Below, in pieces: positions 7,413 through 29,118 of a stretch of DNA of 64,000 bases (positions are counted from its first letter, which is position 1; each line of letters begins with the position of its first letter). The notes under the pieces were generated by a model. That model was not told where the DNA came from, searched no databases, and saw only the letters and a program-made list of their open reading frames with translations. A program made the translations under genes and the position numbers. Source of the DNA: Escherichia phage 4MG; sequence record NC_022968.1; one strand, given 5' to 3'.

Positions 7413-7436
7413 AAAAAAGGGGCCGAAGCCCCTTTA
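7413..7436. terminator. bidirectional hairpin terminator
   Basis: A-run, GGGGC-cgaa-GCCCC, T-run; just downstream of tape measure stop. Confidence 0.5.
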
Positions 7437-7438
7437 AA

Positions 7439-9832
7439 TTATTGAGGAACACCAAGGATTAGGTTGATGTTACCCATGTTCGCAGCTTCAATCTGCTGGT
7501 CGATCATGTTCTTCATTTCGCCTGCGTCGATTTTGATCGTGATCTCACCGCTCACAGGTTCAGTTGGAATCACCATCGGAGGTGTTGCAGCCCCGGCTGG
7601 TCCAGGAACCATTCCATTCTGGTTCAGATAATCAAGTCTGCGCTGGTCAGTCATTGATCTCTGGCCTGTAATGAAGTCCCAAGCCTGTCCCATCCAAGAG
7701 TTTTTCTTCAGGTTACCACCTGCCGTGGTTTCAGTTCCATAAGTCTTATCGCTGTATTCCTGAGCAGAGTCGAAGACGTAATCTCCCAACAGCATACTCT
7801 CACCAGCGATCAGTGCAAACAAACCACCCTTACGTGCAAGCTTATTGCCAAGGCTTAATCCCTTGCCTTTACCCTTCTTCTTGCCCGGACCATCCTCTTC
7901 ACCACCGCCACCATTTCCAACACCAAAGATATCAGAGATAACCTTCAGTGCAGTGGAGAGACCAGCGATCTTAGTCAGGATGTTAAAGACACGAATAAGT
8001 GCAGAAGCGAAGAACAGAGCACCTACGCCCCAGCCTACCCATTTCCATGCAGAGGAAAGCTCTTCACCGTTCTTACGGAAGATCGGGATATAACGCTCCA
8101 TGATGCCTTGGATCAGGACAAAGGTGTTGTAGACAGTATAGACCATCTCCATAAACCCGGCTGTGAATCCAGCAAAGAATTGACCAAGATTTTGCGCAAG
8201 GGGACCGTTGGAGTCAAGAATTTTTGCGAGTTCGTTAAACGCGCTAGTTAATTCTTCACCAAAGCCACTCTGGAATACCTTGTTCTGGAAGTCCATCCAT
8301 GTTAATGTCAGACGCTGCATTGCAACACGGTTACCTTGCAGGGCTTTCTGAAGCGCACCACCCTTGTTTGCTGCCTCTGAGTAATACTTGGCAACGAATG
8401 GCAAGATTTTCGCAGCCTTCAGTTCACCCTTCTGCATCATGTCCATCATCTTGGTTACATCAATGGTGGAATCACCAAAAGCTTCCTGCGTTGCTTTGAG
8501 GAATACCTGTAGAGAACCAGGAATACCTTCCGCAAGCTGTTGCTTAAGTTCTTCAGCCATGATCTGACCTTTACCCATCATCTGTTGGATCGCAGTAATA
8601 CCACGTTGGTATTTAACTGGGTCAACCTGGAGGGCTGTTGAATATTCAGAGAAGGACTTGAATAGCTCATCGTTTTGTGATTTACTAAGAACACCGTTAG
8701 CGGCAATAGCCATTTGGGTGTAACCCTGTGCAGCAACTTTCAGGTCAAGACCTAAACGGTAGGACTGATCACGAACAAATTTCAGACGCTTACCTGCCTC
8801 TGCGGAGTCATCAGAAACCATCAGCATGGTTGCTTCCATACCCTGGAAGAACTGACCTGTTCTTACCACGCTTGCAGCAGCGTTGAATGCACCGTATGCA
8901 GCAGTTACACTCACCAACGTGCTACGCAGGTTCTTCAGCCCATCAGTCAAGGACAGGGTGTTCATGTTTGCTTTACGAAGTCCGGTCTCCATTGCAGCAA
9001 GTTCAGCACGGAAGTTTGAAGACTTCATGGTGTTGCTGTCAAGGAATCTTTCTTTCAGGGAGTCGAAACCCTTAAGTTTGGTTGCGTAGTTGTCACCATA
9101 TTTTGCACGAAGACGTACAGAGGCGTTGGCTACAGTTGATTCTTTACCTGCAAGATAACGAGAGTAACGAAGGTCTTCTGCCTCTTGTTTCTTACGGGCT
9201 TGTTCACGAGCACGAAGTTGCTCTCTGGATGCTTTCTGCTGTTGGCGTTGAACCTGCTGTTGCATTGCACGGTTTTGACGTGCAATCAGTGCCGGATCAG
9301 ATGCAGTACCACTACCAACCATGCCTGAAGCATTCCCTGATTTAGAACGGCGAGCCAGTTCCTCTTGCAGAGCAGCTTGACGTGCAGCAGAGATAGCGGG
9401 GTTTGTACCATAACCACCACCCGTTTTTTCCATTTGACGTAGACGTGCTTTCAGTCCATTATAGTCAGCTTGGGATTCAGGTGAACGTTTGGATGTCAGT
9501 TGAGCAACAGCTTGTTTTCTACGTGCTCTCTGGATCTTGTCAATTGCTTCACGAGCACGAGCCTCTTTCTTCGCCATAGCAATGTTATGGGCTGTGGTCT
9601 TTGCTTGTTCAGCACGTTCAGTTTGTTGCAGTCTTTTGTTGACAAGGCGAGCCTGCATTGCAGAACGCTTCAATGCTGCCGCTGGGTCTGACTTGCTGGC
9701 AGAGAATGCCTTACCAGCTTTTTCCCACTCAGTTTTCAAAGACTTCACAGCTTTCATGGCACGACCGAAGGAGGTCTTGTCCACGTCCCATGTGACTTTG
9801 TTGACTGTCTGGGTTACAATAATGTTCGCCAT
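7439..9832 (-). CDS. tail tape measure protein (797 aa)
   Basis: long A/Q/K/R-rich coiled-coil protein with Gly-rich segment, located after tail tube/chaperone genes. Confidence 0.7.
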   Translation of the reverse strand: MANIIVTQTVNKVTWDVDKTSFGRAMKAVKSLKTEWEKAGKAFSASKSDPAAALKRSAMQARLVNKRLQQTERAEQAKTTAHNIAMAKKEARAREAIDKIQRARRKQAVAQLTSKRSPESQADYNGLKARLRQMEKTGGGYGTNPAISAARQAALQEELARRSKSGNASGMVGSGTASDPALIARQNRAMQQQVQRQQQKASREQLRAREQARKKQEAEDLRYSRYLAGKESTVANASVRLRAKYGDNYATKLKGFDSLKERFLDSNTMKSSNFRAELAAMETGLRKANMNTLSLTDGLKNLRSTLVSVTAAYGAFNAAASVVRTGQFFQGMEATMLMVSDDSAEAGKRLKFVRDQSYRLGLDLKVAAQGYTQMAIAANGVLSKSQNDELFKSFSEYSTALQVDPVKYQRGITAIQQMMGKGQIMAEELKQQLAEGIPGSLQVFLKATQEAFGDSTIDVTKMMDMMQKGELKAAKILPFVAKYYSEAANKGGALQKALQGNRVAMQRLTLTWMDFQNKVFQSGFGEELTSAFNELAKILDSNGPLAQNLGQFFAGFTAGFMEMVYTVYNTFVLIQGIMERYIPIFRKNGEELSSAWKWVGWGVGALFFASALIRVFNILTKIAGLSTALKVISDIFGVGNGGGGEEDGPGKKKGKGKGLSLGNKLARKGGLFALIAGESMLLGDYVFDSAQEYSDKTYGTETTAGGNLKKNSWMGQAWDFITGQRSMTDQRRLDYLNQNGMVPGPAGAATPPMVIPTEPVSGEITIKIDAGEMKNMIDQQIEAANMGNINLILGVPQ

Positions 9833-9885
9833 TGATTTCCTCTCAATAAAAAAGCCAGGTTCCCGAAAAGGAACCCGGCTTGAGA

Positions 9886-10637
9886 TTAACCTCTTCTACC
9901 ACGGCGCGGCTTGCTAGCGGCTTGAGCAGCTTTTGCTTTACTTTCTTCCTCTCTCTCGTGGACATCGTTGACAAACTCTTCCACATCGAGAAACTCATTC
10001 AGCCTGAGCAGATAGGCCATATCCGCATGTTCAAGGGACATATAAGATTCCCCTTTGAAACTTTTCAGAGCACGACACCACAAGTAATCGAACCAAGTCA
10101 GTGAGCTATTTTTCTTTGCATACTCCATAGCCCTCAGGACGACTTTCGAAATTTTGGACGGTGTTACTCCGCTGCCACTTCCGTCGCCTGATCCACCGTA
10201 TTCACTTGATGGGTCTGTCCCAGGCGTCCCAGAAGTCCCTGAAGGTCTGCGAAACCGTCTTTCGTGAAAAAACAGCCGTAGTTGATCTCCAGAACTTTAG
10301 CAACAAGCTTAATGAGGTCTAACATTTTATCTTGGAACAGAGCGTCAATATCTACTTTACCCGCCATACCATCAACGGATACATCCTCAAGAATCAATGC
10401 GAAAAGTTTTTCGATATCATCTTGCTCCATCTGTTCAAAGAGGTATAGAATAGCAGTTGGGAGAGCGTCAGAAAGGTTCTGGCCTCCAGTCATCATGGAA
10501 CCAGAGATGGTTGCCATAGGGACTGCTACATAACGACCGATCTTCGGAAGGTTTTTCATAACCTTGGAAGGAGACCAGTGTGTGATAACAAAGTTGTGAC
10601 CTGCGAGGTCGATGTCAGTTGTTGGTCTGATATTCAT
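9886..10637 (-). CDS. tail assembly chaperone frameshift product (GT-like), made by -1 ribosomal frameshift at 10266..10272
   Basis: -1 frame is open from slippery site TGT TTT TTC through the downstream ORF 9886..10128 with no stop (hand-translated). Confidence 0.5.
10164..10637 (-). CDS. tail assembly chaperone (G-like, 157 aa)
   Basis: ORF between tail tube and tape measure; contains slippery heptamer TTTTTTC near its 3' end. Confidence 0.6.
   Translation of the reverse strand: MNIRPTTDIDLAGHNFVITHWSPSKVMKNLPKIGRYVAVPMATISGSMMTGGQNLSDALPTAILYLFEQMEQDDIEKLFALILEDVSVDGMAGKVDIDALFQDKMLDLIKLVAKVLEINYGCFFTKDGFADLQGLLGRLGQTHQVNTVDQATEVAAE
10266..10272 (-). promoter_or_regulatory. -1 programmed frameshift slippery heptamer T TTT TTC
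   Basis: plus strand reads GAAAAAA; X XXY YYZ pattern in zero frame of chaperone gene. Confidence 0.55.
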
Positions 10638-10712: not shown

Positions 10713-11186
10713 TTATACGATACCTGCAAGACCAGCAAGACCGAAGCCTGCGGAAGACAGAGTATCTGGGCTTAACCAAGCGTCGAGGATACCGATTTCC
10801 CAGTCCATCTGGCCCACTTCTGTACCGTAGGTCAGGTCTGGTTGTTTCTGAATCCAACCGATAGTGCTGAGACCCATACCCTGAGAACCTTCAAGAAGGA
10901 CAGGGAAGAAGATCAGCCCGGTGATAGAAGCTTGTTTCTGCCAGTTTGCGAAGTTTCCGTTCCAAGAAGCGGTGTTCTGGAGGGAAACCGTCATAACACC
11001 AGATTGGTTACGGGATAGTGCGGCAGACAGTTCACCATCAACCCCCATGTGGGGGATGATGTTATCTTCGTTACGAGCAACGACGATCTTGGTATCTGCG
11101 GCAAATCCGGTAACACGCTGAGTCATCAGGTATAGCTTGACTTTTTTAGGGTCGTAAGCATACGGTGTTAGGATAGCTGTATTCAT
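10713..11186 (-). CDS. tail tube protein (157 aa)
   Basis: small ORF immediately downstream of tail sheath gene. Confidence 0.55.
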   Translation of the reverse strand: MNTAILTPYAYDPKKVKLYLMTQRVTGFAADTKIVVARNEDNIIPHMGVDGELSAALSRNQSGVMTVSLQNTASWNGNFANWQKQASITGLIFFPVLLEGSQGMGLSTIGWIQKQPDLTYGTEVGQMDWEIGILDAWLSPDTLSSAGFGLAGLAGIV

Positions 11187-11189
11187 TTA

Positions 11190-12602
11190 TTACACTCCTG
11201 CTGTTACAGTCTGACCGTTTCCGGAACTAGACCCTGTTTTATCTAACAGAACGGTCATGCGGATCTTAACGAAGTGCAGTGGTGTGTTGTACACAAGTTC
11301 CACTTTCACGTTGTTCAGAGTACGAGCAGCCAGATCGTTAGTCGGGATGTTTGCACGAAGCGGGATAGTGATCACCGGATCGTAGAACACTTTGTTAACG
11401 TCATCGTATCCGGTCAGGATAGAACCGTTAGCGATACCTACGTTGATAGGGTTGTTCAGCATCACAGACTTCAGGTTTGGCAGATCGTCATCACTCATCT
11501 TCATGGACAGGCCCTGATTAGAACGACGAGACATGTAGCCGAACACGCTTTCTTCTGTGCGGAATTTCAGCCAGTGACCGAAACGAACAACGTCAACATA
11601 GTTGCCGGAAGCACATTTGCCTTCGTAGAAGGAACCAACACCGTTAATCATACGGTAGAAGTTCAGGTTCTGACCCCAAATGGTCATACGGTCTGTTGCG
11701 CTCAGAACTGGAGCGATAACACCTTCCATAGTCTTCAGGTGAATAGAGTCACCATAAGAAGGATCGTTGGAAGCCATTGCACCGATGATACCACCTTCGG
11801 AGAACGCGCTATCCGCAAGCGGATCGTACATACCGATAGAGGTGTCGTACTGAAGAGCTTTCAGTTGGTTTGCAATAGAGTTGCTACCCGCTGTTTTAAC
11901 CAGTTCGTCAGCAGTTGCATAGACGTGCAGCTTGTAGTTAGCAGCAGCGAATGATGCAGCAGCCAGAATGGATGCGTTAGTGTGAGATTCGGTGCTCAGG
12001 AAGTACCAGTTCTCAGTTGCAGTCAGGATCTGAGGAAGAACAGAGGATACAGTTTCACTTGAAGTGTTGCTGATCACCATGTTTCCGCTGTCGCGCCCGA
12101 CGCTGAATGCACCACCGTTCTTAGGAACGATTGTTACCACACCTGCGCTTGCAGTTGCAGTCAAAACAGTGGTCAGGGTTGCATCACCGTTCAGAGATGC
12201 TGCCAGAGCGGTAGCAATACTGGTTGGTGTAGATGCACCAGTTACCGCCACGATAACGCTGGTCTGATATGCACCAGAAACTACGTTCAGGGCTACAGGA
12301 GCGTCAGGGTCGGTATTGACCTGTCCGGTGAAGTCCACGATGGTGTTAGTAAAGCCTTGACGACCAACCATCAGGTACTGAGGACGGAATGTTCCAGCGA
12401 ATGCTTTTGTTGCGAAGACATAAGCTGGGGAACCTGGAGCGAATCCATCATCTACTAGCTGATCGAGTTCGGTATAAGCGCGAAAACGTTCAGGGAAGAC
12501 GTTGTGGATAGCCAGGAACAGCGGGGTTTCAAACCCTTTGGTGTCGATTGGTTGAGTACCAAGCGCGACTGTTACGTCAACCACCTTATCATTATAAGCC
12601 AT
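11190..12602 (-). CDS. tail sheath protein (470 aa)
   Basis: 470 aa ORF followed by tube gene; N-terminus MAYNDKVVDVTVALGT typical of contractile sheath proteins. Confidence 0.7.
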   Translation of the reverse strand: MAYNDKVVDVTVALGTQPIDTKGFETPLFLAIHNVFPERFRAYTELDQLVDDGFAPGSPAYVFATKAFAGTFRPQYLMVGRQGFTNTIVDFTGQVNTDPDAPVALNVVSGAYQTSVIVAVTGASTPTSIATALAASLNGDATLTTVLTATASAGVVTIVPKNGGAFSVGRDSGNMVISNTSSETVSSVLPQILTATENWYFLSTESHTNASILAAASFAAANYKLHVYATADELVKTAGSNSIANQLKALQYDTSIGMYDPLADSAFSEGGIIGAMASNDPSYGDSIHLKTMEGVIAPVLSATDRMTIWGQNLNFYRMINGVGSFYEGKCASGNYVDVVRFGHWLKFRTEESVFGYMSRRSNQGLSMKMSDDDLPNLKSVMLNNPINVGIANGSILTGYDDVNKVFYDPVITIPLRANIPTNDLAARTLNNVKVELVYNTPLHFVKIRMTVLLDKTGSSSGNGQTVTAGV

Positions 12603-28257: not shown

Positions 28258-28266
28258 ATTGTTTGG

Positions 28267-28339
28267 TGGGACCGGGTGGACTCGAACCACCGACCATCTG
28301 CTCTTCAGGCAGGCACTCTACCAACTGAGTTACAATCCC
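28267..28339 (-). tRNA. tRNA-Phe (GAA)
   Basis: T-arm GGTGG/TTCGAGT/CCACC, anticodon loop CTGAAGA, A73, CCA encoded. Confidence 0.75.
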
Positions 28340-28349
28340 ATAAGATTGG

Positions 28350-28420
28350 TACTTCCTGGTAGAATCGAACTACCGCAACTGCCGTGTAAAGACAGGGTTC
28401 TACCATTAAACTAAGGAAGC
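28350..28420 (-). tRNA. tRNA-Val (TAC)
   Basis: T-loop TTCGATT, anticodon loop TTTACAC, CCA encoded. Confidence 0.7.
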
Positions 28421-28430
28421 ATTAAGGTGG

Positions 28431-28504
28431 TGGGCGACAGGGGACTCGAACCCCCAAAATTCGGAATCTAAATCCGACACGTATACCAATTCCATCAATC
28501 GCCC
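28431..28504 (-). tRNA. tRNA with Leu-type anticodon TAG but short (5 nt) variable arm
   Basis: 74 nt cloverleaf, anticodon stem TCGGA/TCCGA, loop TTTAGAT, A73, CCA encoded. Confidence 0.55.
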
Positions 28505-28616
28505 ATAAATGTTTGGAAGCCCATACTGTCTTCCTGATCAGCCAGAATCCTTTTCTAGCATTATCATCGGCCCTGTAGATCCTATCATTAGCCAGGGGAT
28601 CGACGCCTTAATTTGG

Positions 28617-28689
28617 TGGAGCCACTGAGAATCGAACTCAGTTCTACAAGGTGCAAGCCTGTGATTTTATCCAAATAAACTACAGCCCC
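28617..28689 (-). tRNA. tRNA-Ala (TGC)
   Basis: anticodon loop CTTGCAC; G3:U70 pair present; CCA encoded. Confidence 0.75.
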
Positions 28690-28696
28690 ATGTTGG

Positions 28697-28769
28697 TGCA
28701 AGTACAGGGATTCGAACCCCGATTCTCAGCTTCGTAAACTGATGCTCTGTCCAGTTGAACTATACCTGC
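28697..28769 (-). tRNA. tRNA-Arg (ACG)
   Basis: T-loop TTCGAAT, anticodon loop TTACGAA, CCA encoded. Confidence 0.7.
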
Positions 28770-28778
28770 TAAAATTGG

Positions 28779-28853
28779 TCGGAGCGGCAGGATTCGAACC
28801 TGCGACCCAGTGCATCCAAGGCACCCACGCTGACCAGACTGCGCTACGCTCCG
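28779..28853 (-). tRNA. tRNA-Pro (TGG)
   Basis: T-arm GCAGG/TTCGAAT/CCTGC, anticodon loop CTTGGAT, perfect acceptor pairing, CCA encoded. Confidence 0.75.
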
Positions 28854-29040
28854 AAGGTGCAGAATTTTAATTATCCCAGATACTGCAACTGGTATCGCTG
28901 GCTAGCTAATTTGATCCGCTCTGGTCACCTCGTGTGACATTGCAGACAGGCTAACCTATTCTGCAAGAGCGTATTGGGTTTGATACGTCGAACTCATTTT
29001 GAGTGCCTTCCGGCAATTTACATCAACATATCAAATTTGG

Positions 29041-29111
29041 CGGGAACTTCCTGACTCGAACAGGAGACAACCGCAGCACAAGCGGCCATTATGCCCCTTA
29101 ACTAAATTCCC
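29041..29111 (-). tRNA. tRNA with anticodon GTG (His-type) but G73 and C37, atypical
   Basis: T-arm TCCTG/actcgaa/CAGGA on plus strand, anticodon loop TTGTGCT, CCA encoded. Confidence 0.45.
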
Positions 29112-29118
29112 AATTTGG

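Follow-up and report, generated by a model that had tools for sequence, protein, structure and literature searches.

A predicted −1 ribosomal frameshift of the lambda G/GT type in a Seunavirus tail assembly chaperone gene

Escherichia phage 4MG (sequence record NC_022968.1) carries a tail assembly chaperone gene that is followed, in the −1 frame, by a short open reading frame (ORF) lying just upstream of the tape measure gene. The question raised by this locus is whether the two ORFs are separate genes or are joined by a programmed −1 ribosomal frameshift, as is known for G and T of phage lambda. The DNA analysed is a stretch of 64,000 nucleotides, referred to as the window, and all positions are those of the window. 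The region of interest is 99.0% identical to Cronobacter phage vB_CsaM_GAP31 (GAP31; Seunavirus, Vequintavirinae, the rV5-like phages) and 98.6–98.9% identical to Enterobacter phage EC152 and Escherichia phage LNA4. It is very probable that the chaperone gene of this GAP31-like Seunavirus undergoes a programmed −1 ribosomal frameshift of the lambda G/GT type.

Slip site, reading frames and predicted products

All genes of the stretch lie on the minus strand, in the order sheath, tube, chaperone, −1 ORF and tape measure. The chaperone gene, here called G, occupies 10637..10164 (157 codons) and runs from an ATG at 10637, preceded by AGGAG, to a TAA at 10166-10164. Over residues 13–129, its product matches the Pfam family PF21822 (Phage_TAC_15) with E 3.2e-27 and 96 bits, where the cut-off is 22; in PHROG, it falls into family 3840, 'tail assembly chaperone', with E 4e-71. 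The gene contains the slippery heptamer T_TTT_TTC at 10272..10266 on the minus strand (GAAAAAA on the plus strand), and both the coordinates and the phase given for it in the original prediction were confirmed. In the frame of G, the heptamer consists of the last T of a TGT codon (10272), codon 123 TTT (10271-10269) and codon 124 TTC (10268-10266). The slip site is located 35 codons ahead of the G stop and coincides with the end of the Phage_TAC_15 domain (residues 126–129).

The zone in which a shift can be productive is limited on its 5' side by a −1-frame stop at 10299-10297 (minus strand). From there, the −1 frame is open over 10296..9889, or 136 codons, until the TAA at 9888-9886. The part that begins at CAC 10266 and extends to 9889, the −1-frame coding segment of GT (T), comprises 126 codons, where about 125 had been predicted, and it continues, as was also predicted, in frame into the ATG at 10128. 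This ATG opens the downstream ORF (10128..9886, minus strand, 80 codons), which had been described as annotated, although the window carries no annotation. Between the slip site and the end of G, at 10265..10164 on the minus strand, the DNA would be dual-coding: the 33-codon C-terminal tail of G in frame 0 lies over the start of T in frame −1.

From this layout, we infer the following course of events. Most ribosomes would translate 10637..10164 and release G, while a minority would slip at the heptamer, where the tRNA-Phe(GAA) on the P-site UUU and that on the A-site UUC would both move back by one base to UUU UUU. Reading would then resume at CAC (10266) and yield GT, which would be composed of residues 1–124 of G, a basic, Gly/Ser-rich linker and the T domain. 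By analogy with lambda, the shared G domain may coat the tape measure protein and the T domain may recruit the tube protein. A single mRNA would yield both products in a fixed ratio, and both would be absent from the finished virion. The heptamer itself is of a type known to be shift-prone in E. coli, where tetramers rank A_AA.G > U_UU.Y > C_CC.Y and where heptamers with X and Z all pyrimidines or all purines shift more readily (PMC4066793). U_UU.U_UU.C agrees with both rules.

The predicted G protein has 157 residues (17.2 kDa, isoelectric point 4.6), and the predicted GT protein has 250 residues (27.8 kDa), of which the first 124 are those of G and the rest is the −1-frame T part. The T part begins with a basic HERRFRR segment, followed by approximately 36 residues of which 72% are G, S, T, P or D, and then by a conserved C-terminal domain (KNSSLTWFDYLWCRALK...), which is probably helical. 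The T part matches PHROG 10409/8811 (function unknown). Sequence searches found no related solved structure in the PDB and no NCBIfam model. An AlphaFold2 model of the T part, built from 19 sequences, was of too low quality to be used (mean pLDDT 49, pTM 0.26; disordered N-terminal third, then helices). The two products are predicted to be distinguishable by diagnostic tryptic peptides, VLEINYGCFFTK for G and the junction peptide VLEINYGCFFHER for GT.

The 33-residue tail that is unique to G (TKDGFADLQGLLGRLGQTHQVNTVDQATEVAAE) is conserved across genera despite its overlap with the T frame. G is therefore not merely a truncated GT, and the G-only tail may have a function of its own.

The coincidence of a slippery heptamer with a long open −1 frame was compared with what the phage offers elsewhere. 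The 69 likely genes of the window (17,553 codons) contain 34 in-phase X_XXY_YYZ heptamers, among which that at 10272..10266 is the sole one of the six-identical-base type and the only one that lies inside an overlap with a long −1 extension. When the overlap was scanned for other slip sites, no other in-phase X_XXY_YYZ heptamer and no A_AAG tetramer were found. In the genes of this phage, 9.1% of −1-frame codons are stops; the probability of a 44-codon open overlap is therefore about 0.015, and that of 136 open codons about 2.5e-6.

Conservation of the site and selection on the two frames

The Vequintavirinae that were compared are GAP31, PVP-SE1, KNP2, VLCpiM5a, Mydo, Av-05, pEp_SNUABM_01, FFH2, CR9, P7_Pc and Acinetobacter phage ABPH49. 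The other phages were Schickermooser and muut of the Stephanstirmvirinae and, as distant relatives, Aeromonas phage 4L372XY, Rheinheimera phage Barba9A and Vibrio phage 249E41-1. A narrow-alignment search of IMG/VR supplied a further 19 loci; one of its two search patterns includes the FF codons, and this sample is thus partly biased towards retention of the site. The loci derived by tblastn are free of this bias.

TTTTTTC was found in the same phase and at the same protein position (...NYGCFF...) in every locus examined of the Vequintavirinae, the Stephanstirmvirinae and Plateaulakevirus, the last of these without the N-Y-G/A-x-F-F motif. The combination of TTTTTTC with an open −1 frame is present in Seuna-, Mydo-, Avuna-, Henuna-, Vequinta- and Certrevirus, in ABPH49, in two genera of the Stephanstirmvirinae and in Plateaulakevirus. 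In the relatives with TTTTTTC, the −1 frame is open for 119–149 codons (108 in one locus, which ends at the contig end), and in most relatives a −1-frame stop lies just 1–3 codons upstream of the heptamer and fixes the 5' limit of the shift zone. The +1 frame behaves differently: in the 19 IMG/VR loci it extends only 6–19 codons beyond the G stop, and in the nine more distant phages it is open for no more than 6–52 codons in total. Counting all relatives, the arrangement is kept in about 36 loci from at least 12 lineages, with three different canonical heptamers at or near the same position.

The heptamer is more constant than the encoded protein demands. All 35 loci with the N-Y-G/A-x-F-F motif, which span the Vequintavirinae and the Stephanstirmvirinae, use NNT TTT TTC, whereas codon usage (TGT 61% of Cys; TTT 35% and TTC 65% of Phe) gives an expectation of about 0.14 per independent lineage. 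The synonymous sites of the heptamer are fixed, while those in the rest of the gene approach saturation between genera (synonymous divergence, pS, 0.6–0.9). In two distant phages, the heptamer is replaced. Barba9A (Barbavirus) is without the FF codons and has the lambda heptamer G_GGA_AAG four codons downstream, and Vibrio phage 249E41-1 has A_AAT_TTT at the homologous Phe codon; both retain the homologous T region (...FR.PSG...SSL.F.DY...). These swaps indicate that it is the slippery site, not the amino acids at the slip site, that is conserved.

The same comparison bears on whether the ribosome or the RNA polymerase slips. If the polymerase were to add one U at the T6 run, an mRNA with U7 would be produced that encodes the same ...CFFHER... 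fusion. The six-T homopolymer is present at the site in all Vequintavirinae and Stephanstirmvirinae loci, as this explanation expects, and the products of transcriptional and ribosomal slippage are identical in sequence, which means that protein data cannot separate the two. However, productive transcriptional slippage in bacteria has been described for runs of about nine A or T (PMC5009743), while the run is exactly six in every locus here and never longer. GGGAAAG, AAATTTT and the GGTTTTT of phage KPP10, which stand at or near the same position, fit tRNA re-pairing without offering a comparable homopolymer. The constraint also covers the phase-specific X_XXY_YYZ pattern, including the base ahead of the T run. 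Transcriptional slippage is therefore considered improbable.

Sequencing errors are frequent at homopolymer runs, and an indel in the T run could make one in-frame gene appear as two; alternatively, the −1 ORF could be a meaningless product of chance. The T6 length and the two-frame layout recur, however, in metagenomes and in genomes that many laboratories sequenced independently. Among the 36 G homologues in a collection of 5.8 billion proteins, all of them 149–162 residues long, there is no in-frame G-T fusion, which indicates that the two-frame layout is maintained; the 33-residue tail of G in frame 0 is itself conserved, a further point against an indel. A sequencing indel is excluded because many independent genomes agree, and the chance that either an indel or a coincidence accounts for the locus is negligible. 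The only full-length match to T, a protein of 130 residues, was rejected as a real T gene, as the contigs are 850 bp or shorter and the call is an end-truncated version of the −1 frame. A joint MAFFT alignment of the 250-residue fusion with the G and T homologues was discarded too, since it misplaced G homologues onto the T part.

A different possibility is that no recoding takes place and that the downstream ORF is an independent small gene which starts at ATG 10128, or at the ATT used in the GAP31 RefSeq record, and overlaps by accident. To evaluate the −1 frame, the window was compared with KNP2, Av-05, pEp_SNUABM_01, PVP-SE1 and FFH2. For the 13 codons that separate the G stop from ATG 10128, the numbers of changes by −1-frame codon position are [0,1,3], [0,0,3], [3,0,7], [0,0,1] and [2,1,6], that is, mostly in the third position. 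The 80 codons past ATG 10128 are likewise third-position-biased (e.g., [9,12,38]). As judged from these substitutions, purifying selection acts on the −1 frame upstream of 10128, the only ATG in that frame. Within the 33-codon overlap, pS is 0.15–0.32 and is lowered in both frames, against 0.54–0.85 where a single frame is coding, and the changes are distributed evenly across the codon positions. Low pS in both frames together with an even spread is what dual coding predicts.

The start codon of the downstream ORF fits an independent gene poorly. An ATG at 10128 with GAGGG upstream does exist, and a separate 'hypothetical protein' is entered at this place in many public records. However, the spacing between GAGGG and the ATG is just 2 nt, and the ATG is not conserved, with Ile or Ser codons in its place in Mydo-, Henuna- and Vequintavirus. 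The starts chosen in public records disagree with one another and truncate the conserved domain: ATT in GAP31 and PVP-SE1 (that of the GAP31 RefSeq record corresponds to window position 10152), GTG in FFH2 and 4L372XY, TTG in Av-05 and Schickermooser, and various internal ATGs, giving proteins of 43–88 residues. In some records, no ORF at all is given after the chaperone gene. Moreover, the −1 frame is free of stops back to the heptamer in about 36 loci, while the probability of 33 open codons is about 0.044 per independent lineage. An independent gene is thus very unlikely, even less likely than slippage by the polymerase. A joined frameshift coding sequence or fusion was annotated in none of 20 public records, which include those of RefSeq GAP31, PVP-SE1, Av-05, Mydo, KNP2, FFH2, Schickermooser and muut.

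The locus had been predicted to be of the G/GT type, and every feature by which such an arrangement can be recognized from sequence was found: the gene order, the chaperone domain, an in-phase heptamer within the overlap, its conservation, and selection on both frames.

Stimulatory signals and the surrounding genes

Four sets of observations weigh against a ribosomal frameshift at this site. The first is that the searchable literature contains no experimental data on this phage or any rV5-like phage. The second is the T6 run itself, which could in principle support slippage of the RNA polymerase with an identical protein as the outcome. The third concerns the search for a downstream structure, which the original prediction had proposed as a check. 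When 40, 60, 80 and 127 nt after the heptamer were folded, the z-scores were +0.58, −0.49, +0.83 and −1.13, none of which is significant, and the structures predicted for 60-nt folds in five relatives differ from each other and share nothing. The fourth concerns an upstream candidate, a Shine–Dalgarno (SD)-like element, which is absent in five of 16 lineages (KNP2, CR9, P7_Pc, 4L372XY and Barba9A) and is confounded with a conserved Leu-Glu dipeptide. A small CGAAA/TTTCG hairpin 2 nt past the heptamer was considered as a stimulator and rejected: it is absent from FFH2, and it is explained by dual coding.

The SD-like element is a GGAG at 10290..10287 (minus strand) within the codons CTG GAG (Leu-Glu), 14 nt upstream of the heptamer. 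The spacing reported for SD stimulation of −1 shifts is 9–14 nt (PMC5009743), and the GGAG is a possible stimulator of the shift. GGAG, GGAGG or GAGG occurs at −18/−17 in 11 of the 16 lineages, compared with a background of 2.3% in the coding sequence of this phage; the 11 include ABPH49, in which the codon is Arg AGG, and Vibrio phage 249E41-1, in which the heptamer is different. Where the site encodes Glu, 10 of the 13 codons are GAG, compared with 36% genome-wide. Because it overlaps the Leu-Glu dipeptide and is missing in five lineages, the element can only be regarded as a lead. It is conceivable, though rather doubtful, that the shift in the Phage_TAC_15 family is driven by an internal SD-like GGAG/GAGG 13–14 nt upstream and not by a downstream RNA structure, and that a tRNA-Phe(GAA) encoded by the phage tunes it further. 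If this were true, it would be a case of 5'-stimulated frameshifting in the style of dnaX and insertion sequence (IS) elements in a phage tail gene, and the heptamer swaps would provide a built-in comparative experiment.

The window contains a cluster of 25 tRNA genes at 28264..34878 on the minus strand. One of these, at 28264..28339, is a tRNA-Phe(GAA), which decodes both codons of the slippery heptamer. A tRNA-Phe supplied by the phage could influence the efficiency of the shift. A tRNA-like gene at 30264..30333 (minus strand) was reported by ARAGORN as 'tRNA-???', with a two-base anticodon and no assignment. Its anticodon stem GCCAC/GTGGT closes a loop of 6 nt (TCGTCA) where 7 are usual, and the Rfam tRNA model gives it 38 bits, above the gathering score of 29. 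The gene may be a pseudo-tRNA, or else a tRNA whose anticodon loop is unusual.

The gene pair formed by G and the −1 ORF is situated between the tube gene and the tape measure gene. The sheath gene (12602..11190, minus strand; 470 residues) is assigned to a tail sheath family by PHROG. It is followed by the tail tube gene (11186..10713, minus strand; 157 residues), which matches Pfam KPP10_Orf10 and carries the label 'virion structural protein' in GAP31, beside the sheath gene. The tape measure gene (9832..7439, minus strand; 797 codons) matches Pfam TMP_3 (E 4.7e-15) and PHROG 5255 (1216.6 bits, with E reported as 0).

The gap that separates the T stop from the tape measure ATG holds, at 9881..9843 on the minus strand, a terminator-like hairpin with a 13-bp stem and a 4-nt loop, followed by TTTTTTATT. 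A hairpin is found at the same position, with compensatory changes in the stem, in KNP2, Av-05, pEp_SNUABM_01, PVP-SE1, FFH2, CR9, P7_Pc and ABPH49, and it is not kept in phi92-like phages. This hairpin may attenuate transcription into the tape measure gene, or it may shield the chaperone mRNA at its 3' end. Another terminator-like hairpin, AAAGGGGC TTCG GCCCCTTT followed by TTTATTG, is located directly after the tape measure stop, at 7435..7416 on the minus strand.

Comparison with known systems

The production of two chaperones from one gene is standard in long-tailed phages. The case described here is an ordinary one that will not surprise a specialist, and it leaves the understanding of frameshifting and tail assembly unchanged. 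Its main value is the correction of annotation across the rV5-like and phi92-like phages, several of which are candidates for therapy or biocontrol, where a full annotation is expected. In addition, the natural variants of the slip site (T_TTT_TTC, G_GTT_TTT, G_GGA_AAG and A_AAT_TTT) can be used to compare efficiencies. No description of a frameshift in rV5, PVP-SE1, phi92 or the Vequintavirinae was found in the literature.

The signals around the slip site resemble those of E. coli dnaX and the IS elements in one respect, as the candidate SD-like GGAG, 14 nt upstream, falls within the 9–14 nt range. They differ in that no stable, conserved 3' hairpin or pseudoknot, which in dnaX/IS3-type signals lies 5–9 nt downstream, was found here, and in that the SD-like element overlaps Leu-Glu and is missing from part of the family.

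In phage P2, the −1 shift occurs on a T-rich heptamer. The E/E+E' system of P2, which is the counterpart of G/GT in a myovirus, is comparable to the present locus in that a phage with a contractile tail has its chaperone pair between the tube and tape measure genes. The efficiency of the P2 frameshift is reported to be 2- to 3-fold above that of lambda (PMC5009743).

The closest case described so far comes from two sister families, the Vandenendeviridae and Andersonviridae. In December 2025, a −1 frameshift between TAC-N and TAC-NC, the two forms of the tail assembly chaperone, was proposed for Pseudomonas phage Adele (Pakpunavirus), other Vandenendeviridae and the Andersonviridae with an invariant GTTTTT motif; the Vequintavirinae were noted as related, but no site was reported for them (PMC12846349). 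The chaperone of KPP10 (Vandenendeviridae), gp013, matches PF21822 with an E of 9e-25. KPP10 and the phage studied here therefore share the Pfam family, and they also share the boundary of the chaperone domain and a G-TTTTT core. The −1 frame of KPP10 begins with ...STRFRRSTVSGEGG..., which is visibly homologous to HERRFRRPSGTSG here, and in both, ...RFRR... is followed by a Gly/Ser-rich stretch. As in the Vequintavirinae, the downstream ORF of the Vandenendeviridae and Andersonviridae has been mis-annotated as a separate hypothetical protein. The two systems differ in the heptamer, since G_GTT_TTT of KPP10 is not a perfect X_XXY_YYZ while T_TTT_TTC is, and in the overlap, which is shorter in KPP10, with 19 codons of open −1 frame before the stop. 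By sequence comparison, the frameshift site of the Vandenendeviridae and Andersonviridae would thus extend to the Vequintavirinae, Stephanstirmvirinae, Plateaulakevirus, Barbavirus and a Vibrio phage, and it seems to be ancestral to the Phage_TAC_15 chaperone family.

The G/GT frameshift of lambda was described by Levin et al. (1993) and Xu et al. (2004, 2013, 2014), whose work is summarised in PMC5009743. In lambda, where the ratio of G to GT is about 30:1, G serves to coat the tape measure protein and T to recruit the tube protein (PMC5009743). Unlike lambda, the phage studied here is a large virulent myovirus with a contractile tail and a sheath, and its chaperone belongs to Phage_TAC_15, with no detectable sequence homology to lambda G. 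The heptamer is T_TTT_TTC instead of G_GGA_AAG. The slip site also lies 35 codons before the G stop, which gives G a conserved 33-residue tail of its own and creates a dual-coding overlap of about 100 nt. The likenesses are those of layout. In both phages, the pair is located directly upstream of the tape measure gene, and an in-phase X_XXY_YYZ heptamer suited to a −1 shift lies near the end of the chaperone ORF. The longer product, predicted in the present case, combines the shared N-terminal chaperone domain with an extra C-terminal domain, an arrangement that is kept despite low sequence similarity.

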